From IMG/VR virus record IMGVR_UViG_3300037070_001066, positions 40,772-104,771 of that record: a stretch of DNA of 64,000 nt. One strand, given 5' to 3'. Source of the DNA: a virus. Under the pieces are notes generated by a model, which ran no database searches, was not told where the DNA came from, and saw nothing but the letters and a program-made list of their open reading frames with translations. The position numbers and the translations under genes are program-made. This document shows, in pieces, positions 17,457-39,112 of this stretch; within the stretch, counting starts at the first letter, position 1, and each line of letters opens with the position of its first letter.

Positions 17457-20400
17457 CTACTCTAATATCGTGTATAATTGATAATAATCTTTATCTAACT
17501 GAGACCATATTGGCACAAGTCTTTTAGTTGCTTTAACTAATTCATTCTTGTGTTTAGCGTCTTCATCTAAATATGAAAAGAAATTTTCATCATCCTCTGG
17601 GAAGAAGTTAATTGGAGTTACAACTTGTTGTATAAAGTCTAAACCTGTTTGTATTAATTTAATACCTGCAACAGGATTTGTTAAAATCTTAGCTGTCTCT
17701 CTAGGATCTCTAAATTGAGATAATTCAGACTCTAATCTTCTAAGTTGATATACTAAGAACCATAATTCATCATCATCAGGGGCTGCTGCTCCTGCAATTA
17801 ATGCTCCAATAGCTGGTAAAATTACAGATGTTAACATTATCTCAAGAGTTGCTTTCTTTAAATTAGCCTTCTCGTGGTCTGATAATGAGTTATATACATC
17901 TTTCATATACATCAATTGCATAGACTTCATTGATGGAACAACTCCATTTACGAAATATCTAGCTAAAGATGTGTAAATACCTTCAGTATATTCTTTCTTA
18001 GCAGAACTATAGTTTAATTCATCTTCAGTTAAGTCTTCTCTACTTTTAAGTGATGTAGATATACCTGTATATCTGTAAGCAAGAGCGCCTAAGAAGAAGT
18101 TTTTAAACATCATCACTAGTTTACCTGAGATAGTTTTAGACAATTCATTCTTAAAGTTATTATCATAAACACCATACAAGTCAAATACTTTGCTCTTAAT
18201 CAAAAGATTTATATGAGTTTTACCTCCTTTAGCATATTCAGTAGTAAGATTGTGTTTGGTAAATTTAACTTTATCGTCCATTACTAACTTACCTTTGTTG
18301 TCCATCTTAAGCATATCTAATAATGAAGAAGCTTTAGATTCATCTACAACTTTACCATTCTTATCTATAAATTTATTGTCAGAATTCATCACTTTAAGAG
18401 AGTCTAGTACGGCCATAGTAAGTATAGAGTTCATCATGTGCTCTCCAACTTCGTTTATACCATTCATATTCTTTCTAGAAGCTAACTTCTTTGCCAATGT
18501 ATTTCTAAGATATTCTTGTGTAGCAGGATCAAATCCTCCAAATACATCATACATTTCTAAAGTTTGATTTACAAAAGATGTTTTAACTGGATTACTTAAG
18601 TCAGACAATGTGTTAGGAAGTTCAGTTCCATAAAGTTTCTCAGCTTTAAGTAAATTCTTAGGACTAATAACGTCTCCTCCAAATGACTCTATAAACAATT
18701 GAGTGAATCCATTGAATAAGTTAGCAGTTCCTGATGCTACGTTTAGAGACATAGCAATACTTGCAGTAGCTCCATTTACGTAAGATACAATCTTATTTCC
18801 ATCTAAAGGACCTAATCTTCCTCCATGTTCATGAAATACATCATATATCATCCTGTCCATTAAACCTTTTATTCTCTTATATTCATTAGTAAATTCACCT
18901 GGAATAGTTACAACTGGCTGATTCTTGTTCCAAATATTCATTAAAGGAAGTCCAGTTTTAGTAGAAGTTTGAAAATACCTTTTACTTTTAGATACATCTG
19001 CCAACATAATAGCATTAGTTTCGACCTTACTTTTCTCTCTAAAGCTAATAACATTGAAATATTCTTTTCTCAGCATTGTAGCTACGTCTAAAGATTGAGT
19101 TTTTGGATCTATATCACCTCTATAATGAACTTTAACACCGCGAACAGACTCACCTGTTTTGTTATCTATAGCTTCACCATATCCAACATCATCTGGTTTA
19201 ATCTCAGTAGCATCTGTCCACTTTTGTTTAACTAAGCCTTTAAAGTCTTTCTCTACACCTCTTTCGAAATCAGATTTAGTTATAGATGGAAACTTATAGA
19301 AACTTACTTGGCCTGTCTTTCTAACAAGACTCCTACTTCCGCCTGTAGTTGTGTGACCTAATTTGGCTAAAGAAACTGCTTCTTTAAGCATTTCAGCACT
19401 AGCTCCAGTTGGTTTAGTATTTCTATATTTGTCTTTAGGATACCATTTAAGACCATGTTCATCAGATTGATCTCTAACTGTATGCTCTTTCATCCAGGCT
19501 TTAGTCTTCTGATACAATGCTTTGTATTCATCATTCTTCATGAAATCTTTAGCCATTACAGCTCCTTCTGCTTTAAGTTTATCCTTCAATTCACTAAGCT
19601 CTAATTCCATAGGTTTGTATTCTTCTAAATAGATATCTCTAAATTTTACACTATAAATACCTTTAAAGAAGTAATTACCATCTTTGTCTTGCTCATATAT
19701 ATCTTTATATAACTCAGACGGAGCAAGGTTACCTTTTTCTTTAACTAAATCATTAAAAACATTTTTAAGAGCTAAATCATAATCTTTGTACAAATCTATA
19801 ATAGTATCTCTTGCTGCACTAATCATATTAGTGATTATTTGTATAAGTTTACTGTTAGTATTTAAAGGGTCTTCAAAGTTCTTTTTAAATGAACTTATGT
19901 CGAATGCTGGATTGTATACAATTTTCTCTGCAGCTTTAATTAAATCTTCTTCAAATAAATCTTTATCTCTAGTAGTCAACATTCTAGATGCATATTCAAT
20001 TCTAGATTCACCAGTTATTTTCTTATCTACATATTCTTTGTAAAGTCTATTTCTGTGATCTGTCTCTACTTGTGTATTAAACTTTGGATTAGCAAGAAAT
20101 TTAACAGCTTGTTCGTTTTTTATAGCGTGAAACTGAGATTTAAGTGATTTACTTTCACCTGCAGCATAAGATATAATCTTTCTTATAGAATTAAAATCTT
20201 CAACTTCCTCTTCAGTTAAGTCTTTTTTAAGGACAGAGGCTCCAACAAGTTTACTTATATCATCAATAAGATCATATGCGGCTAGATACTCTTCATAACT
20301 ATTTATAGTCTTAAGTAGATCTTCGTCTCTATAGTCTTTTGTTTTCTTATGAAGTCTTTCTAAACCTTTTGTAACTTGAATAACAGTTTTGTTTAATGTA

Positions 20401-21593
20401 TTAGCATAACCTAAAATAACTTTAACTTTTTGAGTCTCAGACATTTTGTCCATCTCTTTAATTAAAGCATCTATATTCTTCAAGTGATCTTTTTTGTCTT
20501 TCCTTGATATAGGTTTTTTTGTCTTAGCAGTTCTAGCTCTAGCTTGAGCAATTCTATCTTTAGTTTCTTTTACAAGCTCATCAAGTTTGTTTTCAAAACT
20601 AGTCATCTCTGGTTTAACAAATTCAAGCTCTTTAGCAAACACACCTTTATATTGAGTCTCTTCATTTTCATCCTGAACATTTTGTTCATTGAAGTCCATT
20701 ATCGTGTTGAATAAGGTTGTATATTCACTATTTAGTGGTATATTGAAAAATCTTCTTATTGCGTTAATGAATTGATTCCACAATCCTTCAGATTCAGATT
20801 TAACTTGATCTCTAAATTCAGGATTAGAATAAAACTCAGCAACAAATTCAAATTCATTTTTAAATCCATATTCCTCTGCTAAATCACTATCTTTGTATTT
20901 CTTCATAAACTTGTCAACAACTTCAACAAGTTCTTTCTCTGCAAGAGTTCTATTCTTAGGATCTTTAGCTAAAGCATCAGCAGTAATACTATGAACAACT
21001 TCATGAAGAAAAGCTACAACAACATCTTTCTCACTAAGACCTTTAATTCTCTCTGAAGAAACTTGAATTTTCTTAGATACTGGGTCATATTGCATAACTG
21101 CAGAAGTAGATATCATGACTTCTTCATCAACTAATTCAACTTTTGCTTTCGATCCACCCATAATACGTGCCGCTCTAGTAGCTAAATCTTGCGCGTAAGG
21201 CGTTAAATCAGAAATTCCAGTACTTATATTAGATAAAATATTATCGACGCTTAAATCGCCTTTAAATAGGTTTTCAGTAAATACTTCAACTTCAGGATCA
21301 TATGAAATTTCTTCATCAAGAGTATTTGGAGCATTTTCATCAACTAAATCATGAAAATTTACTTCATCTGACAATCCTATCTCACTAATTGGTTCTGTTA
21401 ATTTTTGTTCAGGTTTTGCATTTTCTTTAACAACTGATGCAGTATGTAGTTCGTCTACTGTAGGAAACTTTTCAAGTCCATTTACTTCTTGCCACAAAGA
21501 TATCTTAGCAGCAGCAATTAGGGGACTAACCCCTAACTCGCTAGCCAAATCAATAACAGCATGACTCTTATGATTAACACAATGTATTGCCAT
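17457..21593 (-). CDS. Large virion cargo/ejection protein with zincin metallopeptidase domain
   Basis: 1378 aa; HEVVH at 20991-21005 with downstream EFVAE; helical C-terminal part with a hydrophobic segment; downstream of the vRNAP gene as in crAss-like phages. Confidence 0.75.
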   Translation of the reverse strand: MAIHCVNHKSHAVIDLASELGVSPLIAAAKISLWQEVNGLEKFPTVDELHTASVVKENAKPEQKLTEPISEIGLSDEVNFHDLVDENAPNTLDEEISYDPEVEVFTENLFKGDLSVDNILSNISTGISDLTPYAQDLATRAARIMGGSKAKVELVDEEVMISTSAVMQYDPVSKKIQVSSERIKGLSEKDVVVAFLHEVVHSITADALAKDPKNRTLAEKELVEVVDKFMKKYKDSDLAEEYGFKNEFEFVAEFYSNPEFRDQVKSESEGLWNQFINAIRRFFNIPLNSEYTTLFNTIMDFNEQNVQDENEETQYKGVFAKELEFVKPEMTSFENKLDELVKETKDRIAQARARTAKTKKPISRKDKKDHLKNIDALIKEMDKMSETQKVKVILGYANTLNKTVIQVTKGLERLHKKTKDYRDEDLLKTINSYEEYLAAYDLIDDISKLVGASVLKKDLTEEEVEDFNSIRKIISYAAGESKSLKSQFHAIKNEQAVKFLANPKFNTQVETDHRNRLYKEYVDKKITGESRIEYASRMLTTRDKDLFEEDLIKAAEKIVYNPAFDISSFKKNFEDPLNTNSKLIQIITNMISAARDTIIDLYKDYDLALKNVFNDLVKEKGNLAPSELYKDIYEQDKDGNYFFKGIYSVKFRDIYLEEYKPMELELSELKDKLKAEGAVMAKDFMKNDEYKALYQKTKAWMKEHTVRDQSDEHGLKWYPKDKYRNTKPTGASAEMLKEAVSLAKLGHTTTGGSRSLVRKTGQVSFYKFPSITKSDFERGVEKDFKGLVKQKWTDATEIKPDDVGYGEAIDNKTGESVRGVKVHYRGDIDPKTQSLDVATMLRKEYFNVISFREKSKVETNAIMLADVSKSKRYFQTSTKTGLPLMNIWNKNQPVVTIPGEFTNEYKRIKGLMDRMIYDVFHEHGGRLGPLDGNKIVSYVNGATASIAMSLNVASGTANLFNGFTQLFIESFGGDVISPKNLLKAEKLYGTELPNTLSDLSNPVKTSFVNQTLEMYDVFGGFDPATQEYLRNTLAKKLASRKNMNGINEVGEHMMNSILTMAVLDSLKVMNSDNKFIDKNGKVVDESKASSLLDMLKMDNKGKLVMDDKVKFTKHNLTTEYAKGGKTHINLLIKSKVFDLYGVYDNNFKNELSKTISGKLVMMFKNFFLGALAYRYTGISTSLKSREDLTEDELNYSSAKKEYTEGIYTSLARYFVNGVVPSMKSMQLMYMKDVYNSLSDHEKANLKKATLEIMLTSVILPAIGALIAGAAAPDDDELWFLVYQLRRLESELSQFRDPRETAKILTNPVAGIKLIQTGLDFIQQVVTPINFFPEDDENFFSYLDEDAKHKNELVKATKRLVPIWSQLDKDYYQLYTILE

Positions 21594-21599
21594 ATATTT

Positions 21600-21962
21600 T
21601 TATTTTAAAAATTTTAATTTATATAGCGTACTATATATTAATTCTAATATGTCATCAATTATTTGTTGTAGATATCCGCAGTCACTTAAAGACTCTCTAA
21701 AGGATTTAAAAGACTCAATAAATCCTTCTAAATAAGAAATTGGACTAATGCTTTCAGAAATAGAAAACGACTTATAGCCTTTTATAATTCCATATTCTCC
21801 TTGGTAAGACTCAATGAATCTATCTCTAAGATCTACAATATCTCTATATAATCCATCTAAAGCTTTATGCTCTGCAAAACTAGATGTTTGCAAGTGAGCA
21901 ATATGTGCATTTACTTCTATTGCAAATAGGTTAGACACAAACTCTTGTACTTTATTTTCCAT
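21600..21962 (-). CDS. Ferritin/Dps-like four-helix protein
   Basis: AHIAHLQTSSFAEHKALDGLY...DRFIESYQG and C-terminal IDDI...TLYKL. Confidence 0.75.
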   Translation of the reverse strand: MENKVQEFVSNLFAIEVNAHIAHLQTSSFAEHKALDGLYRDIVDLRDRFIESYQGEYGIIKGYKSFSISESISPISYLEGFIESFKSFRESLSDCGYLQQIIDDILELIYSTLYKLKFLK

Positions 21963-24900
21963 AACATTCTATTAATTTTTCTTTTTCATCGTCACTTAAC
22001 GCCATGAATGACTCCTTAGTCATAGTAGGATCTGCTTGTTGGAAAGCCTTAGAATGCTTATTCCATGAATCTTCAATAAACTTATCATAATCTTGTTCAG
22101 TAGTCTCTTCTCCAGTTAAATTCAATGCTCTTGAGGCATTTCCTTCAATAGTCTCAGCTTTGTTACTAATTCCAATTACAGTAGTTTTAGCTCTAGTTAA
22201 AGCCGTATAAATACTTCTAGATTTAGATTTTGCTGATAAAGGACCAACACTATTGATGTCTTGGATATCTACTATAACACTATCATATGTAGAACCTTGA
22301 GATTTATGTGAAGTTATAGCATAAGCATAATCTATGTTAGCAAAAGACTTTTTAAGTCCCCATGCTTGTGCATACATTTGCTTTCTTAATGCTCCAGGAG
22401 GCATTTGTTTAGCCTTAGCGAACATCTCAGCTACTCTTTCATTAAACTCAACTTTAGATTCATCTGCAAGTACTGGAAATGACATATCAGTATTAGTTCC
22501 ATCACCACGCTCTACAGTAACTGCATAAGCTTGAAAACCATTATATGTAGTCTTTCTAACACCTTTTATAGAGAATTCATCACTATTAGATACCTTAGTT
22601 CTAGAATCAACATCAAAGTTGTCTTGGAACATTATAATATCATTCTCAATTAATTGAGGCACATCTTCTCCGAATACAGCTTTTCTAATATCATTATTGT
22701 AAGCAGTTCTTGTAGCGTTTCTATATGTAACAACTTTGATTACATTAGGGTTTTGCTCAAGTATACCTCTTTTAAATGAGTCTACTACATCTTCAAATAT
22801 ATGACCAAATGATCTTACAAATACTAAATTACCTTTAGGAGATAATGTATCTTTCATAACTCCATCTGGAACAGGATCTTGTTGAGAAGTTTCTAACTCA
22901 GAGTTATCCCAATAATAATCTGCAAATGGAAGTATAGGAGACTCTTCTCCTTGACGAACACGTTCAGTTAGGCTAGCTTTATTCTCAGAATCAAATACAG
23001 GACTAATGCTATCTAAATCAGTTTTAGACCATCCATGATAATAAGGATTTTTAAGATCTCTAATAGGAGGCAATTGACCTCTATCTCCCAAGAACACTAA
23101 TTTAGCAGATCTTCTTTTCATCTCCATCATCATCTCAATAGCCTCTTCATTAACCATAGAAGCTTCATCTATAATAATAATATCATGTTTAGTAATCTTA
23201 GCATCTTCAGAAAATGAATCAGTAAACTCACCTGTCTCAACATCCATAGTCTTGCCTAATATACCAGCTATACTTCCACTTTCAATCTTCCCAGGATATC
23301 TATTGTCAAGCTTCTCTGATAAAACTAACTTAGCTTTATGAGATAATGCTGCAATTAAAATCTTTTTACCTGCATTTACAAATGGGGCAATAGCTTCTTG
23401 TACAATAGTAGTTTTACCAGTACCAGCCTTACCTTCAATTACAAGTATCTCTCCTGGATTACCATTCTTAACAAACTCTTGAATTACGTTAATTGCATTC
23501 TCTTGTTGTTCATTTGCAGGTTTAAATACTTGCTTATTATTAATGCTGTCATAAGGAGGGTTTGTTATAATATCAACTTTAGGTGTTGCAAGAATACCAT
23601 GTTCAGCTAAACTAAGTATGTTCCTTCTTTCAGAAGATTCATCTACCCATTTCATTATCTTATTATTAGTAAGAGAAATAATTGTATTATTAGGAGTAAC
23701 AACATAATCACTACCTAAGTAAGTAACAAATTTACCTTTCTCTTTTCTACTTGTAAGTTTAGATTTAGATACAGACAGCTTAGCTAAAGCACCTTCCATT
23801 CCTGGATTATATATTTGAACAGTTCCTATTGCATTAAATTGAGTAACTATATATGGAACTCCATTATAATCTACAAATCTACCAATTTCTAAAGGATATT
23901 CGCTAATAGGTTCAATTTTCTTGATATTAGTACCAGCTTCTCTTTTAACTGCTTCATATTCTTCTTCGGTTAACTCATGAGGAACAACATCTGCATCAGC
24001 TGCGTCCATTATAGCCTCTTCAGTTCTTTTATACAAATCTCTAATGGCTTGTTTTGCAGCTTCTTCTTTTTTAGTTCCTAAATACTCTTGTCTAGGAGTC
24101 CATTTATTAGTAGATTTATCTAAAGTATTATAATTTTCTATATCTCTAGTTCCAACACCTGCAAAATCCTTAGTCAAAATAGGTGGTTTATGTAGTTCAA
24201 AATACTTACCATTCCATCTATTCCACTTTTCAGTTTTAGTGTCCCATACGTAAACAGGTTTTCTTAACTTAATACCTAATTGAACTGCAGTATTAGTTCC
24301 TCCATGTACAGCTGTTGAATTGAATTTATCATTAATATCTAAAGGAGCTACAGCAAATACAGCATCAGAATTAGCTACTTGATAGTAATTTCTAACTTGA
24401 AGATTGCCTTGAACTGTATTTGGGAATTTTTTACCAAGCAATCTCTCAACTTCAATCCTAGCAGTTTCCATTTGTTCATCTGTTAATACAGTTGCTTCTA
24501 CTTTGCTATTTTTAAGTTTTTGAGATAGTCCAGTATTTTTGCCCTCTCTATAATGTTTATGTTCAGTAACACCAAATTCTCTACCAATAATATCAAAGTA
24601 TGTATCTGCACCATAAGCTCCACCACTATGATTAGTTATTTCAGACATAGAAGATACTTCTAGTACAGGTTCTTTTAATACTATAGAATCTTTTATATCT
24701 TCAACTTTACGATATACTGGAGCAAGTTCTTTAACTTCAACAGGTTTCCCTGGCTCTTCAATTCTTTCATCAACCTCTGATAATTCAAAGTTAGGATTAA
24801 AGTTTTCTCTTTCAGTTACAACCATATTCATTAAATAGTCAATTTCTTCTTTATTACTTAATTCTGGTCTCTTAATGAATCTATCTCCATATTCTATAAC

Positions 24901-27900: not shown

Positions 27901-30900
27901 ATTAAAAGTAACATTATCTATCTCTCCTTTAGCATTATGAATAGTAGTTGGAGTAGGAGAACCTACTTTAAATCCATCTATTGTAATAAGCTCATCAACA
28001 CCTTGCTCTTGCATTCCATTAAACAACTTCTCTAGTCCAGTATTTTTAACTAAACCTCTAGTTAATACAGCTTGAGAGTATTTAAGGTATGTAGGAGTTT
28101 TTCCATTCATATAAAAGTAAACACCCTTTAATGGTTGTGCCATTATCTTAAGTTCGTCTTTAGTATAGATTGGATGTGTATCTGATGTCATTTTCTCATA
28201 CACAGCATTGTGAGTTTTATTATCCCACTTACCAAGTCTTTCAAGTAAGAATCTCCATCTTTGAGGAGTTATCCAAGCTTGAGCATCAGCAGAGTTAATT
28301 TTTTTGTATGGTTTAGCACCATCTTCTCCAAGCATTTCAACTAACTTATCAAATACAGGAGATTCTATTTCTATACTATTAATTGTAGCAGCAGTAAAAG
28401 TTTCTTCTCCCTCTTTCAATCTCAATTGAAGTCCATCAGTATATGTACCAGGAATACGTTTCTTATAATCAACCATGTTTTTATAGAAAGCAACATCTCC
28501 TGTAAACAGTTTAGAGTACTCTATATTTTGAATTAATCCGTTAATATAGAAGTCAGATGCTGCAGATGTAACTGCATTAGTTGTATCTCCAAAATTATTT
28601 TCTAAATACTTTTTAAAAACGTCTTTATCTATTCTTTTATTAGAATAACCGTCTTTATTTATTTCTACAACTTCTTGGTTAATCAATGAGAATACAGTTT
28701 CTTGTATACCACCTTGTAGCATATCATTAATATATGCTTCTATCTCAGATCTTAACTCTGGATTAGTAGACAAGTCAGCAGTATGTTTAATACTACCATC
28801 ACTGTTATATAACTTACTTTTAATTTCATTAACAGCACTATTGTCAGATTTCTCTGAGAAAGATAACTCTGGAAAGTATTGAGAATTAAATGCATTACCA
28901 TTCTTTGAGTAAATATCTGAACCTGCTTTGTAATGATAATGTATTCTAAGATTCTCAGGGTTCTCACCAGCAACATCTACTTCAGCATTAGCCTCCTTCA
29001 TTCTATTGAATTCAGAGTTAAAGTAGTTGAAGAACAATCTTAATGTTCTATCATTAATAGAAACCTCATCATTTCTAATAGTAGTTGTATCTACAAATAG
29101 TCCAGTTCTAATTTGAAGATCTGTAGTCTTATCAGCAGGAGTTGTTGTTCTTACATATGAATTTGATAATACCTTATTTAAGTTATCATTAAAGTAATCA
29201 TTGTAAGATATATCACTTGCAGACACATAGTCTCCGTCTTTCTCTTGAAATGTATTGAACACGCCTAAATTTAAACTATCAAGTCTTTCTTTAGATACTT
29301 TTCTTCTTTCTTCTTTTAGTCCATCTTTAAGAACTTTTTTATTTCCAAATTCATCTTTAGGATTAATATCTAATGCTAGTAAGTATTTTGCAAGTTCAGA
29401 TCCTTTATTATATGCAGATTGGTCATACCAATTTCTTAACAATTCAGGATTTTTCTTCCATTGTAAAATTCTAGTAGAGATATATGACGGATATGAAAAC
29501 AACCATTTATTCTTACCTGAAGTCCATATACTTGCATCAGAACCTTCTGACAAAAAGAAAGACTCTGCTTTAGCTAACTCTTTAAATATACTTTGAGTTT
29601 CAAAAGGATTGTTAAAATCTTTATGAGCTTTTTTAAAATAGTTTAAAGATTTCTTTAGAACATAACTAGTTCTTTGAACAGATTTAGTTAACTTACCTTT
29701 CTGATGTTCAATATTGAATGATTTGGATCCATTATCATCTAAATAGTTAATAAAACCATTCTTTGTCAATTCAACTCCTAACTCTCTAGTTAAAGCAACA
29801 TATTCATTAGAGTATTTAGTAAATTCCTCTTCGGACATATCTTTAGAAACTAAATTAAGAAGTGAATCTAGCTCACTTATAATACCTTCTAAATTAGCTT
29901 TAGCTCCTTCTTTAAATGAATTATCTTCTTTCAAGAAACTTAGTCTAAAGTTATTACCCCATTCTGATTCAACAATAGATGCCTTAGATCCAGACTCTGA
30001 AACTTCTTTCACGTCTAACTTAAATGTCTTTTCGACATTGCTAGTTTCCGTATCTACAACTTTAGTTCTTATCTCAGATACAAGAAAGTTTTGCTTATGT
30101 AAGTTAAATGCTTGAGCAAATTGATTCTTATCGCTTTCAGTAAATCTCTTATCGTTAAAGAATCCAATCAATTGATTTAGGTATTCTTTTTTGTAGGCTA
30201 TTTTCTTAATCTGAGTTCTTTGCAATTCAAACATATCTTCACCAGGAAGAGCAACTTGATTTGAAATGTTGTTTAAAAGAGTTGAGTATACATCATTAAA
30301 TGGAACAAACGTAGGTTCATTCCATACAGGATCTCTTTCTTCGTTGTTTTCAAGCAAAGACAATCTAAGTTTAATGTTGTTACTTAAAGAATTCTTACTG
30401 TCTTGTTCAAATGAAGCTTTGTTGAATACAGGATCTTTACCTTCTTCACTTATCGTTTGTAAGTCAGAAGCTTCGTCGTTATCAACTCTTTTAATACTTA
30501 TCTGTTTGTAAAAATTGTCAATTCTATCTACATATTCATCTAAATAATCTAATGACTTTCCGAGAGATCTAGACATAAATTTCCCTTTAGGACCTTCTGT
30601 TTGAAGAGAAGCTATCTTCTTTTTTATTTCAGATTCAACATGATCTCTTAATCTAGGAAGTTTTTCTCCTTCTTCGAATTCAATGTTATTGAAGTTAATA
30701 TTAGGAGATTGTTTAAAGTAATTTAAAGCAAGTCTAGAAACAATTCTATCCATTTGTTTATAGTCAAAAACAGAACGAAGTCCTCTTTTTTCTATTGGAT
30801 ATGGTATCTGTTCATCATTTTTACTAATGAAGTAATACTTTTTAGACTCTTCACTATAAAACAATTTAGGTTCTCCATTATCGTAAACTCTTTTACTGAA

Positions 30901-31092
30901 TGAAGGATCTCCTTCTTTATATCCTTCAACCCAATCTCCAAATTCTTCTACAAATGCAGATTGTTCACCAGGAACAACATCAAAATAAGCATAAGCTTCC
31001 TCAGCTTTAAACTCATTACTATAGATATGCTCTAATGTTTTAATCAATTTCGATTCAGAACCATTTGTTCTTGTGATCTTTTTACACGCCAT
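21952..31092 (-). CDS. Virion RNA polymerase (crAss-type double-psi beta-barrel) fused to SLOG-like and SF1B helicase domains
   Basis: ADAQAWI, GYRIPNQ and catalytic GSDFDIDK (~27.0 kb); SGGAYGAD...RNYYQV...GGTNTAV; GKAGTGKT, IIIDEASM, GDRGQLPP, RVRQ, TSHKSQGSTY and YTALTRAK. Confidence 0.9.
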   Translation of the reverse strand: MACKKITRTNGSESKLIKTLEHIYSNEFKAEEAYAYFDVVPGEQSAFVEEFGDWVEGYKEGDPSFSKRVYDNGEPKLFYSEESKKYYFISKNDEQIPYPIEKRGLRSVFDYKQMDRIVSRLALNYFKQSPNINFNNIEFEEGEKLPRLRDHVESEIKKKIASLQTEGPKGKFMSRSLGKSLDYLDEYVDRIDNFYKQISIKRVDNDEASDLQTISEEGKDPVFNKASFEQDSKNSLSNNIKLRLSLLENNEERDPVWNEPTFVPFNDVYSTLLNNISNQVALPGEDMFELQRTQIKKIAYKKEYLNQLIGFFNDKRFTESDKNQFAQAFNLHKQNFLVSEIRTKVVDTETSNVEKTFKLDVKEVSESGSKASIVESEWGNNFRLSFLKEDNSFKEGAKANLEGIISELDSLLNLVSKDMSEEEFTKYSNEYVALTRELGVELTKNGFINYLDDNGSKSFNIEHQKGKLTKSVQRTSYVLKKSLNYFKKAHKDFNNPFETQSIFKELAKAESFFLSEGSDASIWTSGKNKWLFSYPSYISTRILQWKKNPELLRNWYDQSAYNKGSELAKYLLALDINPKDEFGNKKVLKDGLKEERRKVSKERLDSLNLGVFNTFQEKDGDYVSASDISYNDYFNDNLNKVLSNSYVRTTTPADKTTDLQIRTGLFVDTTTIRNDEVSINDRTLRLFFNYFNSEFNRMKEANAEVDVAGENPENLRIHYHYKAGSDIYSKNGNAFNSQYFPELSFSEKSDNSAVNEIKSKLYNSDGSIKHTADLSTNPELRSEIEAYINDMLQGGIQETVFSLINQEVVEINKDGYSNKRIDKDVFKKYLENNFGDTTNAVTSAASDFYINGLIQNIEYSKLFTGDVAFYKNMVDYKKRIPGTYTDGLQLRLKEGEETFTAATINSIEIESPVFDKLVEMLGEDGAKPYKKINSADAQAWITPQRWRFLLERLGKWDNKTHNAVYEKMTSDTHPIYTKDELKIMAQPLKGVYFYMNGKTPTYLKYSQAVLTRGLVKNTGLEKLFNGMQEQGVDELITIDGFKVGSPTPTTIHNAKGEIDNVTFNKVSLSNYGWKLQQDLPIKTFKQTDVGSQIQKNIFAGLKFNAKQKGFYLDGKDVTGKEISDGISDIVKGLIGKGLEEVNKEFSIGKSGKINNVKGLYNALVKELEKRGGSKNIIDALNKQVTLYGMPQSIDKIISIYSSIMNDRLIKIKTNGGAFIQMSNFGISKENGDKGIIWSPVLNNGDTTFEPTIYVDEDTGKTKIRPGGILISGSFIAKYIPDYKKYKAEELFGYTDEDGNKVEGIIDDRILSNIVGYRIPNQGLSSNDALQIVGILPEENGDTIVAYTGITTKTGSDFDIDKMFIMMSNYTLSEGKLKYTEYNPELSNEEQSKEAVQNRLVELYKAVLTNPKVIKDVMKPVDIKFIENEIKDLVKADTSKPMFHFDAVSDIKLRYEFIGGKAGVGQEANALVDINRIGNLSLNKYYIGWGHSEVRNNIRETVFDKEFSEQLSPSDLEYYLKAMNGSEELANEISKVKIGDSLTAILNAFVDIAKDPYITRGNWTTSTTNIGNLLLRSGTHPLYVTAFMAQPIIKQYVQYQSSLESITSKNSGDTKTKFKRNLVLENLIKLQDEKGFPYGVVYQKMKADGILNDKALDKGVSEIKKVLGKKATFDEINPILDEIRDAHNEIFKEETVNITSKEYDLQFFREQITGKPDGPFQLAVYKKFLELQEVSKTMKENVDVSKLDTNGMGKNINSLYSIFNLKQYILGKEENDNYKALNGLQSKFDNTTLGHYFESLKEMMRIVQSNPSLFPQGQEKVQKMFNTISDDLYSMPATNEELTTDLEKNYYTYVMSNFNPFNLSEEESRDLLNNLPAKFDEFRKEYRGKYMILDELQIKRDGKVKIISLNNRKKSTSFEEKFTDSWRDLRLDHVQFAEDLIKYSFLTSGFRMNSNQFYTYIPHEYMINEGVNYFVPKFSRANQEDFIDKFYLNNTHKYKYVPLVFENEMVTRDKESGFIKKESGKSRFYVQLDDNHIYKLEGYDSENKGIYTRVNPLGKKLKGSVVIEYGDRFIKRPELSNKEEIDYLMNMVVTERENFNPNFELSEVDERIEEPGKPVEVKELAPVYRKVEDIKDSIVLKEPVLEVSSMSEITNHSGGAYGADTYFDIIGREFGVTEHKHYREGKNTGLSQKLKNSKVEATVLTDEQMETARIEVERLLGKKFPNTVQGNLQVRNYYQVANSDAVFAVAPLDINDKFNSTAVHGGTNTAVQLGIKLRKPVYVWDTKTEKWNRWNGKYFELHKPPILTKDFAGVGTRDIENYNTLDKSTNKWTPRQEYLGTKKEEAAKQAIRDLYKRTEEAIMDAADADVVPHELTEEEYEAVKREAGTNIKKIEPISEYPLEIGRFVDYNGVPYIVTQFNAIGTVQIYNPGMEGALAKLSVSKSKLTSRKEKGKFVTYLGSDYVVTPNNTIISLTNNKIMKWVDESSERRNILSLAEHGILATPKVDIITNPPYDSINNKQVFKPANEQQENAINVIQEFVKNGNPGEILVIEGKAGTGKTTIVQEAIAPFVNAGKKILIAALSHKAKLVLSEKLDNRYPGKIESGSIAGILGKTMDVETGEFTDSFSEDAKITKHDIIIIDEASMVNEEAIEMMMEMKRRSAKLVFLGDRGQLPPIRDLKNPYYHGWSKTDLDSISPVFDSENKASLTERVRQGEESPILPFADYYWDNSELETSQQDPVPDGVMKDTLSPKGNLVFVRSFGHIFEDVVDSFKRGILEQNPNVIKVVTYRNATRTAYNNDIRKAVFGEDVPQLIENDIIMFQDNFDVDSRTKVSNSDEFSIKGVRKTTYNGFQAYAVTVERGDGTNTDMSFPVLADESKVEFNERVAEMFAKAKQMPPGALRKQMYAQAWGLKKSFANIDYAYAITSHKSQGSTYDSVIVDIQDINSVGPLSAKSKSRSIYTALTRAKTTVIGISNKAETIEGNASRALNLTGEETTEQDYDKFIEDSWNKHSKAFQQADPTMTKESFMALSDDEKEKLIECYGK

Positions 31093-31104
31093 TTTTTATA
31101 GTTT

Positions 31105-31140
31105 ATGTAAATATACAATTTTTTTATTTAATATGCAAAT
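31105..31140 (-). promoter_or_regulatory. Bacteroidetes-type promoter upstream of the vRNAP gene
   Basis: Minus strand ATTTGCATAT-N14-GTATATTTACAT, i.e. TTTG-N20-TATATTTA, close to the -33 TTTG / -7 TAnnTTTG consensus. Same boxes recur at 50601-50636. Confidence 0.65.
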
Positions 31141-34100
31141 TAAAATCCACATATTTGTTTTATATCGTCAATAGACTTGTTATTTTTCTTAGCAACATCT
31201 ATTAGCTCATTAAAAGTCTTATTAAGATTCTCTGAAGAGAAAGATTCATCAGAAGTGTATTTATCTAAAACGTTGAATTTGTCAGCAAGACTAAATATAA
31301 CTTCTGCCTTAGTATCATCATCAACTTTATTAAATAAAATTTCTAATTCATTGACATTAGTTTTAACATCTTGTTTACTATTAGGAGCTTCTTCTTTCTT
31401 TTTCTTGGCATTAAGCATATCTTGAAATAATTGACTAGTTCTAGCAACTTTACCTTCTTCATTAGACTCTACAGTAATCTCCTTCTTAACTTCCTCTTTA
31501 ACTTTCTTAGCAACAGGTTTGCTATTTTTAACGTCCTGATTAAGATATATATTACTATATCCTTGAAATGTAGGTTGATTAACTACAGCATTTGTTGTCA
31601 ATAGTGGCATATTCTTATTTAGAAGGTATTCTACATATGCTGGGTTATTGAAAACAAACTGACCTGGAGCATCTCTAGTTATAAGAATGTTATGTCTCTT
31701 ATATTGAACATATCTCATTATAGCCTCTCTAGCTTCAGGAGAAGCTAACTCTTCTTTAGTTATAGACAATTTATGTTCAAATCCAGAACCATCTAATAAA
31801 TGCATTGCTAATGAACCTAGAATTAAATTACCGTCAGGCATTAAATTAAAACCAGTTTTAGGATTTAAACTTTTATGATATATGATTAAGTCTAATAACC
31901 TAGAAAGACTTTCATTCCTTTCATCACCTTTAGCAGTTCTTTTAACAAATCCTATCTCACCTTTCAAAGCTTCTTGTAATGAAGCACTAAGATCTGGATC
32001 TATTTCATCTAATTGTTTAAAGAATTGTCCTACAGTTAAAGCTTGAAAACTAGTCTTCTTGCCTATAGACTGAGATACTTGACTTAAAGATTTAACAATC
32101 TCATATACAGCTTCAGCTTTCTCTTCATTTATTCTAGACACATTTAGCTTTAAAGGGAATGGAGTTCCATTGTTTTGATTGACCATAAGGAAAACTTCTC
32201 CCTTAGACTTTATACCAATATTAGTTTGCATAATATGATCTTTGTCTAATGTACTAACTAAGTTTCCTTCCCAGTTAACATAACCAGTATTCTTTTGAAA
32301 ATATTCAATCTTCTGAGCTTTAGTCATACCATCAAATACCTGTAAATCAAGTACACTGTTCATTGGAACAGGACCATCCTCTTCTCTCTGAGTTATTTTA
32401 AGGACTCCAGGGAACTGATCTATTACGTTTGATGATATACCATCAAAACCTTTATTTAATACAGCCTGAGCGATTATATTGCGTCTGAGAGGCATAGTTT
32501 GCTTCTCTAGTATCTCTTGAGAATCAGGATGAGCTTGATTGTCTTCAGTTTTGTTTTCTATAAAAGAATGTACTTTTTTCTCTTTACCATCTTTCTTGTA
32601 TGTAAACGTAACTCTAATAGGTAATTCATCTTCAAGTAACTTAATGTCGCTTGCTGTGGCAATACCAGAAACTAAATTATTAAATGCAGCTTCGACTTCT
32701 TTAGTAGTTGTCTTAATTACTTTACCAACATTATTAGGATCTGCTATAGAACTTACAAATGAGAAAGTTACTCCGTCACCAGATTTATCTCTAGGAGTTC
32801 TTTCATATTCAACGAAAGATTCTAAATTAGGATATAAAGCTTTGCCAGTTTTTCTTTTTGTACTAATAACTTTAGCTCCAGCTTGAGGAGAATCTAAATC
32901 ATCGTCAATTTCTTTCTCAGTTTTGTTAGCTCCAGTTTCAACTTCTTCATCTTCAACTTCATCTTCTCTAGTAGGTAATGATTCAGATTGATAATCTCCT
33001 TCTTCATCTTCAGTTACAGGAGGAACTACGATTTCTACAACTTCTTCAGGTTCGTCTATCTTTTGAGTTTCTTCTAGTTCTGTTTGAATGTTTTTCTCTA
33101 CCTCTTTTTCTACAGCCTCTTCTTCGTTTAATTGATCTTCTTTTTCTTTAATCTTCTGAGCTATAACAGGATTCTTGACTAGAGGATTAACCTTCCTATC
33201 TTTAAGATTCTGTATATCTTCCCAAAACTCTCGTTCATTATTTAATGAATTAAGAGCTTGCTTATTAATTACAGCCTTATTTATCCTATTAAGTTTATCT
33301 TTAGTGTCTTTTAAATCAGATTTAGCTTCTTGTAAGTTTTTAGATGTTCTAAGAAACTCATCTCTAACATACTTATAATCTTCCATATTAGTACCAGGCT
33401 TAATCTTGCCTAACATGTCTGCATATGTCTCAAGTATACCTTTAAGTACAGTTCTATATCCATCTAATGAATCTACAGCTTCTTCAAGTTCTTCAACTCT
33501 ACGTTCTGTACCTAATTGATGTGTTAACAAAACTCCTAAGTCTTGACGATGATCTTTAAATAGATCTGAACTTTTATTTAAGTAATCTACAATATCCTGA
33601 ATGGTTTCTAATTCAAGATTATTCACTTGATTATACCTGTCAAAGATATAGTTAATTTCTTTATTTAGTTGTTTAAGTTCACCTTCAAGGTCATTGATAG
33701 CTTTTTCATACCTAGAGATGTCTTTATTAACCTCTTCTAGCTGGTTTTCAGCCTCTCTAATGAGTTGTTTTAATATTTTGGCATTACGACCTCTAGGAGA
33801 TTTATTCTCTTCTTGTAGAGCCTTAATTAAAGCCTTCTGAATTGATATAAGATTGTTTAACTCGTCTTGATGTTTAGATAAAGTCTCTTGAACTTCTTCA
33901 GCATGACTATAATATTCGTCTAATACATCTTCTAAAGTATCTTTAAAAGCTTCTTGCTCTTCAATTCTTCCTGACAATGTATCTTCTATATCATCTATTA
34001 AGTCATTAATTGCAGATGAAGTCATATTCAATGCTTTCAACTTATCTAAATTTGACTTTAAATTAGAAGTAGAATCATCATTTGATATACTTTTAGAAAC

Positions 34101-36578
34101 TTGACTAACAACATGTTCTTCTGTTGCTCTATCATAATCTTCATTAGATACATGAGCAGGAAGCATCAACATATTTAACTCATCTTTTGATTGAGCAGAA
34201 TCAACATTGTCTATAAACTCTTGAGCCTTAGCAACAGCTTCAGGTGAAGATGCATTTTCTTCAGCTTTCTCATGACCTATGAACTTATTAAAAGCTTCTT
34301 GAATATTGTCTCCACCTTTCCAAATATCAGCAATATCTTTCTTATGTTTTTCAACTTCTAATTTTTTAGCTTGATAATCTTTATCTATATTTTTAATTAA
34401 TTCATTTGATTCTAAGGCTTCTTTTGTTTTAGTAGCTCTTTCTTCTAATTTTTCATCAGTTACTAATCCTGGTTTCATTTTACTAGTAGGGAATTCAGAA
34501 GTAGGATCATATAATTCATCTACTCCAGCTTCATCATAAGCTTTTCTTCTTTTATCTTCTAGTTTTTTTAAGTCATTTTCAGCGTTTCTAAGGGCATATT
34601 TTGAGTTAAGGTAACTTGCACTAAGTCTTTCAAAGAATTGTTCCTTATGCGCCTCCGTACCATCTCTATTGTCAAGTCTAATGACGTCTCTACTAAAGTC
34701 TTGAAACCTTTCTTTTTGAGACTGTAACCATTTAGCGCTTTCTAATGTTTCTTTAACAAAGTTTTTAGAGTTATCTTTAGAGTCAGACTTAGCATCTCTT
34801 TCTACAATTTCATTGAATTGAGCATCTTGATTAAGCTTTTGTTCTAACGCTTTTAAGCCAGCCTCTCCATTATGAATAGCTGGCATTATTAAATTAAATA
34901 TTGCTTGTCTCTTAATTTGATCAACAACTTCTGTATTGCCAGATTGAACAGCTAAATCGAAAAGTGCAGATTGTCTCTCTGTAAAGTTTAAATTCTTGGC
35001 AACTCTTCTTACTTCTTTGTTGTCTAAAATTCTTTCAGTAGTTTCTTCACCATTTTCATCTAACTTGTATTCAAAAGAACCGTCTTCTTTCTTTTTGTAT
35101 ATGTTATTTTCAAATGTAGTGTTGAAATTTAATATCTCACTATCTATGTTATCAAGAATTGCATTAGTTCTTTTTCTATTTTTAACATCTTCTTTTCTTC
35201 CTTGATAAGACATCATTGGTCCTCCAAGAACTCCTCCTAAGAATATAGCTTTCTGTCCTTCTACTGTAGATAAAGTATTGGCATACTCTTTAGTAAACTC
35301 TCCAATTAAGTCAAATGAATTAGCATCTTTCTTTCCCAATTCACCTCTCATTGCTTTGTTTACAAACATATTCTCTACAGTGGTTTGAGAACCTTCTTCC
35401 CACAAACCTTCAGATACTCCTGCTTCTCCCCATCTTAGAGCAGCTTTACCAGCTCTTTTTGCAATACCTTTAATTCCTACTTCAGCAGTTTTTTCAAACT
35501 TCTCTGCAGCTTTACCCCATATGGCCTTATGCATTATAGCATTAGGCCCTAACAAGATAGCGACGTTAGATACAAATGTGTCTCGCATTGCTAAAGCACG
35601 TTGAGCGCTAAAAGCTTTTTCTGCCTCTTCACCTATATTTTGAGATAATTCATTATATTGGTCTATGCTTATTTGACCTGATCTTCTTTGTTGATCAAGC
35701 TCTGTCATTCTTTTTTTATTGTATGTTTCTACAAATTGTGGCTTTTTAGCATCTAAATCATCACCAACACCTTTAGCCTCAGCTCCTGCTTCTAATAATG
35801 TATTTCCTGTTACAGATAATGCTGTGTCTATATTTCTACCAGTCATTCCCATAAGCTTAGCAACTTGTGTGCCTTCTTCAGCTTTACCTGCCATATTAGT
35901 TAACCATCCTAATTTCTTAGAATTAGCTGCAGATTCAACAAGTTTACTTCCTAAGCCTAACTTTTCAAATGCCATTCCAGGGGCCATCATTCCTACAAGA
36001 AATCCAAGTCCATCAGCACCATCAGTTGCCCAAAAAGCTGTGGAAGATATATTGTCCCAAAGGTTACCTTCTTTCATTGCTTTAGACGCATAAACAGGAA
36101 GTAAATCTTCATTTACATTCTTGTTTAATTTATCTACACTTTTAACCCATTCATTATTAAATATAGTGTCAAAACCTTCACCATCTTCAGCAAAAGGAGC
36201 TGCAATAGCACCAGCAATTACTCCAGGAATTTTAGCAACCTCAGCTGCAGCTTTAGCTACTGCTCTTGTAGGAAGTTTACCTAATTGCTCCCATCCAGAT
36301 TGGTTCTCAGCTCGTATATCTTCATATGGATCTTCAGCGTTTAAATTAGCGAATTGATCAAGTAATGGATTTGTGCCAGGAGTTACTTCATCTTGATTAG
36401 ACGAATTAATATTAACACTATGTCTTTCTGTATCAAAAGCATTAGAAGTAGCTGTTCTTAGTTTGCCTTTTTGAGATGACCATTGTTTATACGCATTTGT
36501 ATTAGCAAGACTATCTAAAAACTTATCATCATAACTACTTGCTGTCTTCTTTCCTTTAGGCGGATCTATTTCACTCAT
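31140..36578 (-). CDS. Large virion cargo/ejection protein (about 1812 aa)
   Basis: N-terminal Gly/Ala-rich hydrophobic segments (e.g. SEGLWEEGSQ region), long coiled coil and acidic linker; directly upstream of vRNAP. ATG at 36578 preferred over the track start at 36608. Confidence 0.75.
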   Translation of the reverse strand: MSEIDPPKGKKTASSYDDKFLDSLANTNAYKQWSSQKGKLRTATSNAFDTERHSVNINSSNQDEVTPGTNPLLDQFANLNAEDPYEDIRAENQSGWEQLGKLPTRAVAKAAAEVAKIPGVIAGAIAAPFAEDGEGFDTIFNNEWVKSVDKLNKNVNEDLLPVYASKAMKEGNLWDNISSTAFWATDGADGLGFLVGMMAPGMAFEKLGLGSKLVESAANSKKLGWLTNMAGKAEEGTQVAKLMGMTGRNIDTALSVTGNTLLEAGAEAKGVGDDLDAKKPQFVETYNKKRMTELDQQRRSGQISIDQYNELSQNIGEEAEKAFSAQRALAMRDTFVSNVAILLGPNAIMHKAIWGKAAEKFEKTAEVGIKGIAKRAGKAALRWGEAGVSEGLWEEGSQTTVENMFVNKAMRGELGKKDANSFDLIGEFTKEYANTLSTVEGQKAIFLGGVLGGPMMSYQGRKEDVKNRKRTNAILDNIDSEILNFNTTFENNIYKKKEDGSFEYKLDENGEETTERILDNKEVRRVAKNLNFTERQSALFDLAVQSGNTEVVDQIKRQAIFNLIMPAIHNGEAGLKALEQKLNQDAQFNEIVERDAKSDSKDNSKNFVKETLESAKWLQSQKERFQDFSRDVIRLDNRDGTEAHKEQFFERLSASYLNSKYALRNAENDLKKLEDKRRKAYDEAGVDELYDPTSEFPTSKMKPGLVTDEKLEERATKTKEALESNELIKNIDKDYQAKKLEVEKHKKDIADIWKGGDNIQEAFNKFIGHEKAEENASSPEAVAKAQEFIDNVDSAQSKDELNMLMLPAHVSNEDYDRATEEHVVSQVSKSISNDDSTSNLKSNLDKLKALNMTSSAINDLIDDIEDTLSGRIEEQEAFKDTLEDVLDEYYSHAEEVQETLSKHQDELNNLISIQKALIKALQEENKSPRGRNAKILKQLIREAENQLEEVNKDISRYEKAINDLEGELKQLNKEINYIFDRYNQVNNLELETIQDIVDYLNKSSDLFKDHRQDLGVLLTHQLGTERRVEELEEAVDSLDGYRTVLKGILETYADMLGKIKPGTNMEDYKYVRDEFLRTSKNLQEAKSDLKDTKDKLNRINKAVINKQALNSLNNEREFWEDIQNLKDRKVNPLVKNPVIAQKIKEKEDQLNEEEAVEKEVEKNIQTELEETQKIDEPEEVVEIVVPPVTEDEEGDYQSESLPTREDEVEDEEVETGANKTEKEIDDDLDSPQAGAKVISTKRKTGKALYPNLESFVEYERTPRDKSGDGVTFSFVSSIADPNNVGKVIKTTTKEVEAAFNNLVSGIATASDIKLLEDELPIRVTFTYKKDGKEKKVHSFIENKTEDNQAHPDSQEILEKQTMPLRRNIIAQAVLNKGFDGISSNVIDQFPGVLKITQREEDGPVPMNSVLDLQVFDGMTKAQKIEYFQKNTGYVNWEGNLVSTLDKDHIMQTNIGIKSKGEVFLMVNQNNGTPFPLKLNVSRINEEKAEAVYEIVKSLSQVSQSIGKKTSFQALTVGQFFKQLDEIDPDLSASLQEALKGEIGFVKRTAKGDERNESLSRLLDLIIYHKSLNPKTGFNLMPDGNLILGSLAMHLLDGSGFEHKLSITKEELASPEAREAIMRYVQYKRHNILITRDAPGQFVFNNPAYVEYLLNKNMPLLTTNAVVNQPTFQGYSNIYLNQDVKNSKPVAKKVKEEVKKEITVESNEEGKVARTSQLFQDMLNAKKKKEEAPNSKQDVKTNVNELEILFNKVDDDTKAEVIFSLADKFNVLDKYTSDESFSSENLNKTFNELIDVAKKNNKSIDDIKQICGF

Positions 36579-38559: not shown

Positions 38560-39112
38560 TTGTTAAAAATTTAAAAGTTGTTTTATTAATTGTTTGCCCT
38601 CTTAAATATTGACTTAATGTAATCATTACAAAGCCATTTTCATTTGCACAATCTGCAATCGAGTCCCAAATTTTCCCAGTCTCAGTGCAAATAACTTTTT
38701 TAGCCATTCCACTATTTTTTTTAAGATTTTCTTTATGATATTCAGAATGTTTTATTCCTTTATTCCATGAAGGTTTTCCTAATTTATTTTTTGACATTTT
38801 CTTTTTAGATTTATCTGAATGTTTTAATCCAAAAGAACCTTCTCCTCCTAATGTTATATTACATAAAGTTCCGGTTCTAGAAGTTTTTCTTCCATAATAA
38901 TCAATTAAAATAATCTCTAATTCTTTAGCATCTTCTAATTCCATATCTTTTTTCAATATTTCAACTAAATAATCAGGATATTTTTTAATTGTTTTAGACC
39001 AAATATCATTTCTATGTCTTCTTTCATATGGTCTTTTTATATTACCTATGCCTATATAAAAGACTTCTCCATTTGGTTTTATATGTCTATATATGCAATA
39101 TCTATTTGCCAT
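38552..39112 (-). CDS. Free-standing GIY-YIG homing endonuclease with NUMOD3/NUMOD1-like repeats
   Basis: CIYRH...FYIGIG..KR, E..LI, NITLGGEG, HSDKSKKKMS, SWNKGIKHS and KKVICTETGKIWDSIADCA. Confidence 0.8.
   Translation of the reverse strand: MANRYCIYRHIKPNGEVFYIGIGNIKRPYERRHRNDIWSKTIKKYPDYLVEILKKDMELEDAKELEIILIDYYGRKTSRTGTLCNITLGGEGSFGLKHSDKSKKKMSKNKLGKPSWNKGIKHSEYHKENLKKNSGMAKKVICTETGKIWDSIADCANENGFVMITLSQYLRGQTINKTTFKFLTNG

Follow-up and report, generated by a model that had tools for sequence, protein, structure and literature searches.

Terminal cysteines of the RNA polymerase cargo proteins in Crassvirales: an order-wide pattern and its interpretation as a head-to-tail disulfide chain

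A stretch of viral DNA of 64,000 nucleotides (IMG/VR virus record IMGVR_UViG_3300037070_001066, positions 40,772 to 104,771), hereafter the window, carries a row of minus-strand genes at 17457-42218 that represents a cargo module of the crassvirus type. The subject of the present work is the placement of cysteine (Cys) residues in three giant proteins encoded in this module, namely the virion RNA polymerase (vRNAP), the 1812-aa protein encoded upstream of it (denoted A) and the 1378-aa protein encoded downstream of it (denoted C). In these proteins, Cys is found exclusively next to the termini that face each other in the order A-vRNAP-C, and comparison with homologues demonstrates that this terminal-Cys pattern is a real, order-wide rule.

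Cysteine residues in the cargo proteins of the window

The three genes and the codons of their Cys residues, the latter obtained by translation of the open reading frames (ORFs), are located as follows.

31140..36578, minus strand: protein A, 1812 aa from ATG, first member of the proposed chain; homologue of crAss001 gp47 and phi14:2 gp078
31149..31151, minus strand: TGT codon of A Cys1810, the third residue from the C-terminus (-3)
21952..31092, minus strand: vRNAP, 3046 aa, middle member of the proposed chain, recognized by homology to the phi14:2 vRNAP
31084..31086, minus strand: TGT codon of vRNAP Cys3
21964..21966, minus strand: TGT codon of vRNAP Cys3043, the fourth residue from the C-terminus (-4)
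17457..21593, minus strand: protein C, 1378 aa, last member of the proposed chain; homologue of crAss001 gp49 and phi14:2 gp076
21579..21581, minus strand: TGT codon of C Cys5

Cys1810 is the single Cys of A and Cys5 is the single Cys of C, and vRNAP contains Cys3 and Cys3043 only, so that the three proteins together include 4 Cys among 6,236 residues, all four encoded by TGT. A preliminary description of this DNA, made by manual reading, placed all four residues correctly to the base, and its concern that internal Cys might have been overlooked proved unfounded because none are present in the translated A, vRNAP and C. The ORFs of the window outside the cargo module contain 1.21% Cys, a frequency at which approximately 75 Cys would be expected in the trio as opposed to the 4 observed (Poisson P ~2e-27); the probability that four randomly placed Cys all fall at most 5 residues from a terminus is ~5e-10. 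The 659-aa and 1038-aa cargo proteins of the same module, previously claimed to be Cys-free, indeed contain no Cys in their translations. Altogether, the five cargo proteins encompass 0 internal Cys among 7,933 residues versus 1.21% elsewhere in the window. The signature of Cys-suppressed ejection proteins, that is, a Cys content far below the proteome mean that is kept across homologues, was found in the window cargo.

Two other statements of the preliminary description hold in part. The outer virion proteins are Cys-rich on average, but their Cys content ranges from 0 to 4.7%, with none in the auxiliary capsid protein. The assertion that the Cys residues occupy facing termini in gene order is correct with respect to polarity, although a 120-aa gene (21600-21962) separates the vRNAP and C genes, which are therefore not immediate neighbors.

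Identity and domain architecture of the trio

By sequence comparison, A, vRNAP and C are the RNA polymerase cargo trio of crassviruses. In a tblastn search, vRNAP showed 31% identity to a phi14:2 structural protein over 94% of residues 1-2100. It is homologous to phi14:2 gp66, the vRNAP for which a DFDxD-type catalytic motif has been described (preprint 10.1101/2020.03.07.982082), and the three Asp residues expected of a two-barrel RNA polymerase are invariant in the alignment. The last ~900 residues of the window vRNAP comprise two extra domains, both devoid of Cys.

27013..27027, minus strand: vRNAP catalytic Asp triad D1356, D1358, D1360 in a DFDID-type motif, in invariant alignment columns
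24247..24651, minus strand: vRNAP DprA/SLOG-like domain, residues 2148-2282, Cys-free (phrog_768, E 3.8e-9; tblastn match to the cr130_1 DprA-like gene)
22156..23538, minus strand: vRNAP Dda/RecD-like superfamily 1 (SF1) helicase domain, residues 2519-2979, Cys-free (phrog_325, E 2e-77; Pfam AAA_30, AAA_19 and UvrD_C_2)

The same domain fusion is present in the vRNAPs of many relatives, some of which additionally contain an AlkB-like domain (PF13532). The free-standing helicase of N4 contains 6 Cys in 439 aa, in contrast to the Cys-free helicase domain of the window vRNAP.

Mass spectrometry of phi14:2 and crAss001 virions identified homologues of the trio among the virion proteins, and early transcription in phi14:2 is rifampicin-resistant (preprint 10.1101/2020.03.07.982082). 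Packaging of the trio and its delivery into the host have been shown for homologues, and homology suggests the same for the proteins of the window.

Conservation of the terminal cysteines across Crassvirales

Database searches yielded 77 homologues of vRNAP, 58 of A and 18 of C, and a scan of viral contigs added 80 loci. All conservation counts refer to distinct sequences after removal of duplicates and, in the case of vRNAP, to unfused forms. Computed across these crassvirus orthologues, including those with fused or split genes, the Cys distribution bears out the expectation of the preliminary description: the terminal Cys are conserved and track protein junctions. In 91/91 distinct unfused vRNAPs, Cys is present both at position 3-5 and at -1 to -7. 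In 100 of 103 homologues of A, Cys is confined to the last 12 residues and absent from the N-terminus; the other three are a protein with Cys at -32, a frameshifted copy and a protein with a C-terminal PEBP-domain extension. All 74 distinct homologues of C, including the 18 from databases, contain Cys at position 2-6, and just one, an extra internal chain member from locus L064 (see below), has a Cys at the C-terminal tip as well. Overall, the tip Cys usually lies 1-7 residues (rarely up to 32) from the terminus that faces the next protein. Internal Cys account for 15 of 223,902 residues in the vRNAP set, 9 of 174,108 in the A set and 13 of 109,039 in the C set, or about 0.005-0.012%. Among the other ORFs of the related loci, 5/223 contain a Cys within the first 10 residues.

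The conservation extends to highly diverged proteins. Among vRNAPs that are 23-59% identical, Cys3 is one of ~68 invariant columns and the C-terminal Cys is nearly invariant, and Cys1810 is invariant across 44 homologues of A with 24-70% identity; the residues flanking Cys3 and Cys1810 vary in the alignments. In phi14:2, Cys is the last residue of gp078, occupies positions 3 and -2 in gp077 and position 3 in gp076. In crAss001, it is located at -3 in gp47, at 5 and -9 in gp50 and at 5 in gp49; given that the gp47 gene lies on the opposite strand, the pattern is a property of the proteins and does not depend on gene adjacency. The rule is also obeyed by crAss002, a Carjivirus and the Suoliviridae cr118_1 and cr1_1, so that the cultured or classified phages represent three families.

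For two RNA polymerase genes, the rule points to misannotated starts. An in-frame ATG that yields an M-S-C terminus is found 32 codons downstream of the annotated start of crAss002 gp33 (L085:17307-30044) and 22 codons downstream of that of the Carjivirus RNA polymerase gene (L084:16893-29168). On the basis of the tip-Cys rule, the M-S-C codons are probably the true starts of both genes. One of the two annotated starts is a non-ATG codon.

Several individual sequences deviate in other respects. The A homologue with the PEBP extension (P0123, 1874 aa) lacks a tail Cys and contains four Cys in the extension (PF01161). Five vRNAP homologues of 3,800-4,900 aa (P0046, P0047, P0055, P0058 and P0059) contain 14-39 internal Cys, with the tip Cys still at position 3-6 and at -1 to -8. 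In one locus (L008:16891-22075), the vRNAP and C genes are separated by an insertion of three Cys-rich genes, of 781, 500 and 440 aa, and the tip-Cys pattern of vRNAP and C is unchanged.

Terminal cysteines at natural fusions and fissions

The terminal Cys disappear where the proteins are fused. The nine A-vRNAP fusions retain a Cys at the C-terminus and contain none at the N-terminus, and the two vRNAP-C fusions keep the N-terminal Cys alone. At the fused joint in locus L075, the segment equivalent to tail plus head is about equal in length to its unfused counterpart, with the Cys tips gone.

The reverse event is observed in locus L064, where the ~600 residues that close the single-chain vRNAP in near relatives form a separate 1167-aa protein. 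This protein is collinear with, and 30-32% identical to, the vRNAPs of L066 and L078 (E 1e-73 to 1e-85). The upstream vRNAP piece has acquired a new terminal Cys at -2; the 1167-aa protein contains Cys4, on a head of the C type, and a Cys at -2; and the last protein of the locus contains Cys4. The relatives contain no Cys at the internal position that matches the split.

These observations can be generalized as a chain rule, under which the first member has a tail Cys only, inner members have both and the last member has a head Cys only. In the 65 loci that encode at least two giant ORFs of this type, none of them cut by the end of the locus, the rule holds directly in 55; the remaining 10 are accounted for by a partner outside the locus, one frameshift, ORFs split by introns or a Cys-free cargo protein counted by its length. 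The numbers of tail Cys and head Cys are equal in every complete locus. Three loci in which the vRNAP ORF is broken without any Cys (L014, L015 and L067) were considered as counter-examples and rejected: here a group I intron with a 214-aa LAGLIDADG ORF (L014:11654-12597, and likewise in L015 and L067) interrupts the DFDxD motif of vRNAP, and the protein is not split. The intron assignment derives from two partial matches to Rfam RF00028, with E 2e-6 and 6e-4, both below the gathering score.

Structure of the tips

The tips were folded with AlphaFold2 on alignments from the related loci, and two modules were predicted with confidence.

31143..31358, minus strand: C-terminal tail module of A, residues 1741-1812, helical bundle (predicted local distance difference test, pLDDT, 85-95)
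21432..21593, minus strand: N-terminal head module of C, residues 1-54 (pLDDT 92-97)

In the model of the A tail, a low-confidence linker is followed by a confident helical bundle of ~70 residues (1741-1810) that is closed by the last helix (1803-1810), which ends at Cys1810. In the C head, Cys5 is predicted to lie in a short coil preceding a confident three-helix domain (11-52), followed by a disordered linker (55-98) and a domain with an H-E-x-x-H motif. The notion that the terminal Cys sit on small modules thus holds for these two tips.

A recurrent head type of ~50 residues (C-[IV]-N ... W/F-Q ... N-G ... F-P in the alignment) is attached to differing C bodies and is present also on the extra chain member of L064. 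Tails with an amphipathic helix accompany C-[IV]-N heads, and acidic N-P-x-C tails accompany M-S-C-x-I-K heads.

The H-E-V-V-H motif of C (residues ~100-210; approximately 20934-21300, minus strand) resides in a domain of its own after the head and the linker. This domain has no Pfam match, and a sequence search of the PDB with C gave no match; when the model of C residues 1-220 was compared to the PDB with Foldseek, the domain showed weak similarity to the minimal zincin metallopeptidases selecase and abylysin (E 0.1-0.9).

Other genes of the module and its neighborhood

The remaining genes of the cargo module are the following.

21600..21962, minus strand: 120-aa DUF5856/phrog_858 gene between the vRNAP and C genes, with one internal Cys, outside the proposed chain
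36580..38559, minus strand: 659-aa cargo protein, Cys-free, outside the proposed chain; in nearly all related loci, the counterparts encoded upstream of A likewise lack Cys
39102..42218, minus strand: Cys-free cargo protein of 1038 aa that weakly matches the crassvirus cargo protein 1 domain (crAss_CARG1, PF25725; E 3e-4, below the curated cut-off)

Two Cys-rich genes for homing endonucleases of the GIY-YIG type, at 38552-39112 and 42208-42855 (both on the minus strand), are interspersed with the Cys-free cargo genes. The product of the former begins with M-A-N-R-Y, the same five residues that open the 659-aa gene after it.

Farther along the minus strand, matches to Crass_capsid (E 1e-165), crAss_MUZ (E 4e-200) and crAss_AuxCP (E 6.5e-27) were detected, and the cargo genes are found upstream of genes for major capsid, auxiliary capsid and muzzle proteins, in a crassvirus genome context. 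In the structural region, two proteins of ~320-330 aa, encoded at 51632-52624 and 50652-51614 (minus strand), have Cys as the last residue, and a 326-aa protein encoded at 55861-56841 (minus strand) contains its only Cys at position 2. A near-identity DNA search of a phage collection produced no match to the window DNA.

A proposed head-to-tail disulfide chain and its alternatives

Given the near-universal conservation of the terminal Cys, their strict polarity, their loss at natural fusions and their gain at a natural fission, it is strongly supported by comparative evidence that all four are functional and pair as A tail with vRNAP head and vRNAP tail with C head. Head-to-tail disulfide linkage of A, vRNAP and C appears to be the best explanation, with a probability that we estimate at roughly 60%. 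A disulfide is plausible because the same signature corresponds to a solved disulfide in the cyanopodophage A4 (see below) and because crassvirus virions contain disulfides, which stabilize the tail and the portal vertex of crAss001 (PMC10172136). The trio, purged of internal Cys like the ejected proteins of N4 and T7, would be joined in the virion by two bonds, A tail Cys to vRNAP head Cys and vRNAP tail Cys to C head Cys. Since the bonds would be located at the very tips and run from C-terminus to N-terminus, the resulting chain would be unbranched and have the same polarity as one continuous polypeptide; it would be equivalent to the A-vRNAP and vRNAP-C proteins that are naturally fused in other crassviruses as well as to the vRNAP of N4, a single protein of 3,500 residues. 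Such a chain would leave the capsid as one thread, and its parts would be separated in the cytoplasm by host thiol reductants. The preliminary description had proposed a linkage of this kind: its pairing is the component that comparison strongly supports, and bond formation in crassviruses, exit as one thread and separation by host thiol reductants, as well as packaging in a 1:1:1 ratio, passage through the tail in a set order and release in the reducing cytoplasm, are components that we infer.

The tip position of the Cys and the ban on Cys elsewhere fit a chain that passes through a narrow channel without loops or branches, and the existence of natural fusions implies that covalent continuity in the A-vRNAP-C order is workable. 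On reducing sodium dodecyl sulfate polyacrylamide gels, crAss001 virions show bands of ~150 and ~270 kDa (PMC6235969). Given these separate bands, any link has to be reducible rather than a peptide bond, and peptide ligation was rejected on this ground. Intramolecular cyclization of vRNAP (Cys3 to Cys3043) was also rejected as a general function because the fused forms keep just one of these Cys. Taken to its full extent, the chain would amount to an order-wide 'split polyprotein': Cys-tipped tails and heads would rejoin the pieces, however the genes are cut or fused, into one unbranched N-to-C thread of 5,000-7,000 residues. With its parts in a 1:1:1 ratio, this thread would be packaged, drawn through the tail as one molecule and then divided into functional parts by host thiol reductases. 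We advance this extension tentatively, as a possible if somewhat doubtful one.

A number of observations weigh against the disulfide chain. A bond between protein tips has been physically observed solely in A4 and in no crassvirus, and A4 is an analogy rather than a homology given the lack of sequence or fold similarity. In crassviruses, the termini are disordered in the crystal structure of the phi14:2 vRNAP (preprint 10.1101/2020.03.07.982082), and the cargo is not resolved in the crAss001 map. Virion assembly takes place in the cytoplasm, which is reducing, and gut phages in addition live in an anaerobic habitat, so the timing of oxidation is left unexplained. Some gut lineages encode giant proteins with 8-39 internal Cys and keep the terminal ones, so that the ban on internal Cys is not absolute. 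No universal docking motif is apparent: the tails share no motif apart from the Cys, which alone is conserved there, and show just a tendency toward Lys and acidic residues. The heads of vRNAP and those of C are not demonstrably homologous in sequence comparison; a common head domain was dropped from consideration at an hhalign probability of 19%, and therefore homology between the two is not claimed. Finally, the match between tail and head classes was rejected as independent evidence of co-evolution because the classes are encoded side by side, and linkage and phylogeny can explain it.

Among the alternatives that accept pairing, it is rather unlikely that the disulfides exist merely as staples of a static folded cargo core, as in the A4 pre-ejectosome, with no injectable thread and perhaps with the bonds broken or rearranged before exit. 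The A4 bond does stabilize a docked helix in an ordered pentameric ring, and the A tail and C head are predicted to be folded modules, not bare peptides, in keeping with such staples. Yet, as the natural fusions demonstrate, a phage can complete its life cycle with these proteins permanently and covalently joined in this order; a mere staple would need neither the strict tip position nor the C-to-N polarity, and the virion interior offers no reductant that could open the bonds before exit. The link itself could be a bridging metal ion or other thiol chemistry, as the preliminary description also considered. The evidence of pairing is independent of link chemistry, and in the window the C head has a His next to the Cys (M-A-I-H-C) followed by H8 and H11; nevertheless, we deem a metal clasp quite improbable because each tip offers a single thiolate with no conserved second ligand, the His residues are limited to few lineages and the one solved example of the signature, in A4, is a disulfide.

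Other explanations dispense with pairing between the members of the trio. The tip Cys might bind other partners, such as a thiol of the capsid or portal, a lipid or another molecule of the same protein, or might act only after ejection, for example, in the periplasm. Potential parallels are the window ORFs with Cys at position 2 (326 aa) or at the very end (the two of ~320-330 aa) and T7 gp14 and gp6.7, each of which has a single Cys at position 2 without an obvious partner tail. This alternative appears unlikely, given that it accounts neither for the constant absence of Cys from the N-terminus of A and the C-terminus of C, nor for the equal numbers of tail and head Cys in every complete locus, nor for the creation of one tail Cys and one head Cys upon fission. 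It is hardly credible that the terminal Cys are neutral leftovers, tolerated where they do not affect unfolding. Selection against internal Cys in ejected proteins is indeed known (PMC11445570), but tolerance gives no invariance, and the Cys are kept at 23% identity while their neighbors change; moreover, the N4 ejection proteins lack Cys altogether, and a Cys near the N-terminus is rare among the other ORFs of the related loci (the 5/223 given above). The neutral explanation is already contradicted by the conservation data.

Implications

In the human gut, no phages are more abundant than crassviruses. How their RNA polymerase cargo of ~700 kDa is stored and delivered has been stated as an open question in a study of crAss001 (PMC10172136) and in a 2026 paper on N4 (PMC13434306). 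A simple sequence rule, namely Cys at those tips that adjoin another cargo protein and at no other place, turns this question into a concrete hypothesis. If correct, the disulfide chain would explain why cargo genes fuse and split freely, why recruited domains, such as the helicase of the window vRNAP, become Cys-free and how the order of ejection and the stoichiometry could be set. If, in addition, the split polyprotein holds, it would represent a general, portable way to deliver multi-protein enzymes through a phage tail, with the A4 bond as another instance. In practical terms, the rule can be employed to correct start codons and to spot chain members of unknown family in new genomes.

Comparison with known systems

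Among the known systems, the direct homologues of the trio are the phi14:2 gp66 vRNAP (PDB 6VR4) with its two neighbors and crAss001 gp47, gp50 and gp49, which share with the window the neighborhood (muzzle, capsid and Cys-free cargo genes) and the tip-Cys pattern. They differ in that the window vRNAP has the extra DprA/SLOG-like domain and Dda-like helicase at its C-terminus. The Cys of the crassvirus cargo trio are not mentioned in PMC10172136, preprint 10.1101/2020.03.07.982082 or PMC13434306, and no description of the terminal-Cys pattern in crassviruses was found in the literature searched, which did not span all journals. The impression conveyed in the preliminary description that nothing of this kind had been reported is not entirely accurate, given that two precedents exist, the gp27-gp26 link of A4 and the Cys suppression in N4-like phages (PMC11445570).

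In the cyanopodophage A4 (Anabaena phage A-4L, Saffermanviridae), a disulfide bond connects gp27, through its Cys1715, with Cys5 of gp26 in the pre-ejectosome solved by cryo-electron microscopy, where the C-terminal helix of gp27 docks in gp26 within an ordered pentameric ring around the portal axis (PMC12002296). In the A-4L genome, we verified that gp27 (1717 aa) contains a lone Cys at -3 and gp26 (1114 aa) a lone Cys5. A lone tail Cys in the upstream protein and a lone head Cys in the next product are the signature, with the same C-to-N polarity, that is found in the window trio. BLAST comparison of A, vRNAP and C with A4 gp27 and gp26 showed no similarity (E above 0.3), and the Foldseek search of the PDB with the C 1-220 model retrieved no match to either A4 protein, only the weak zincin-like ones, so homology to gp26 or gp27 was rejected. 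The A4 system further differs in that just two proteins are joined, by one link, with no RNA polymerase among them, and the bond is treated as a local stabilizer, not as a family-wide rule that follows fusion and fission (PMC12002296).

The ejection operon of Schitoviridae (N4 gp50-gp52; DEV gp71-gp73) resembles the crassvirus module in encoding a giant ejected virion RNA polymerase and in conserved Cys suppression, for which passage through the oxidizing periplasm has been suggested as the reason (PMC11445570). In contrast to the crassvirus vRNAP, this polymerase belongs to the T7-like single-subunit type and consists of one polypeptide; it is not homologous and has no tip Cys. N4 gp50 (3500 aa), gp51 and gp52 contain 0 Cys, from which the tip Cys appear to be an addition that accompanies separate chains. 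The T7 core proteins gp14, gp15 and gp16 are likewise ejected and must unfold to pass the tail, but show no head-to-tail Cys pairing; gp15 (747 aa) and gp16 (1318 aa) contain 0 Cys, and gp14 (196 aa) and gp6.7 (88 aa) each begin with M-C, this Cys being the only one.

The proposed release step has a counterpart in AB toxins such as diphtheria toxin, in which an interchain disulfide connects the parts of the extracellular toxin and, once the membrane has been crossed, is opened in the reducing cytosol. The toxin proteins are unrelated to the cargo trio, and their link joins two fragments of one precursor, not serial gene products. In the context of these systems, the A4 bond and the N4-like Cys suppression were known, and what the present work adds is an order-wide rule in crassviruses that follows the fusion and fission of the cargo proteins.

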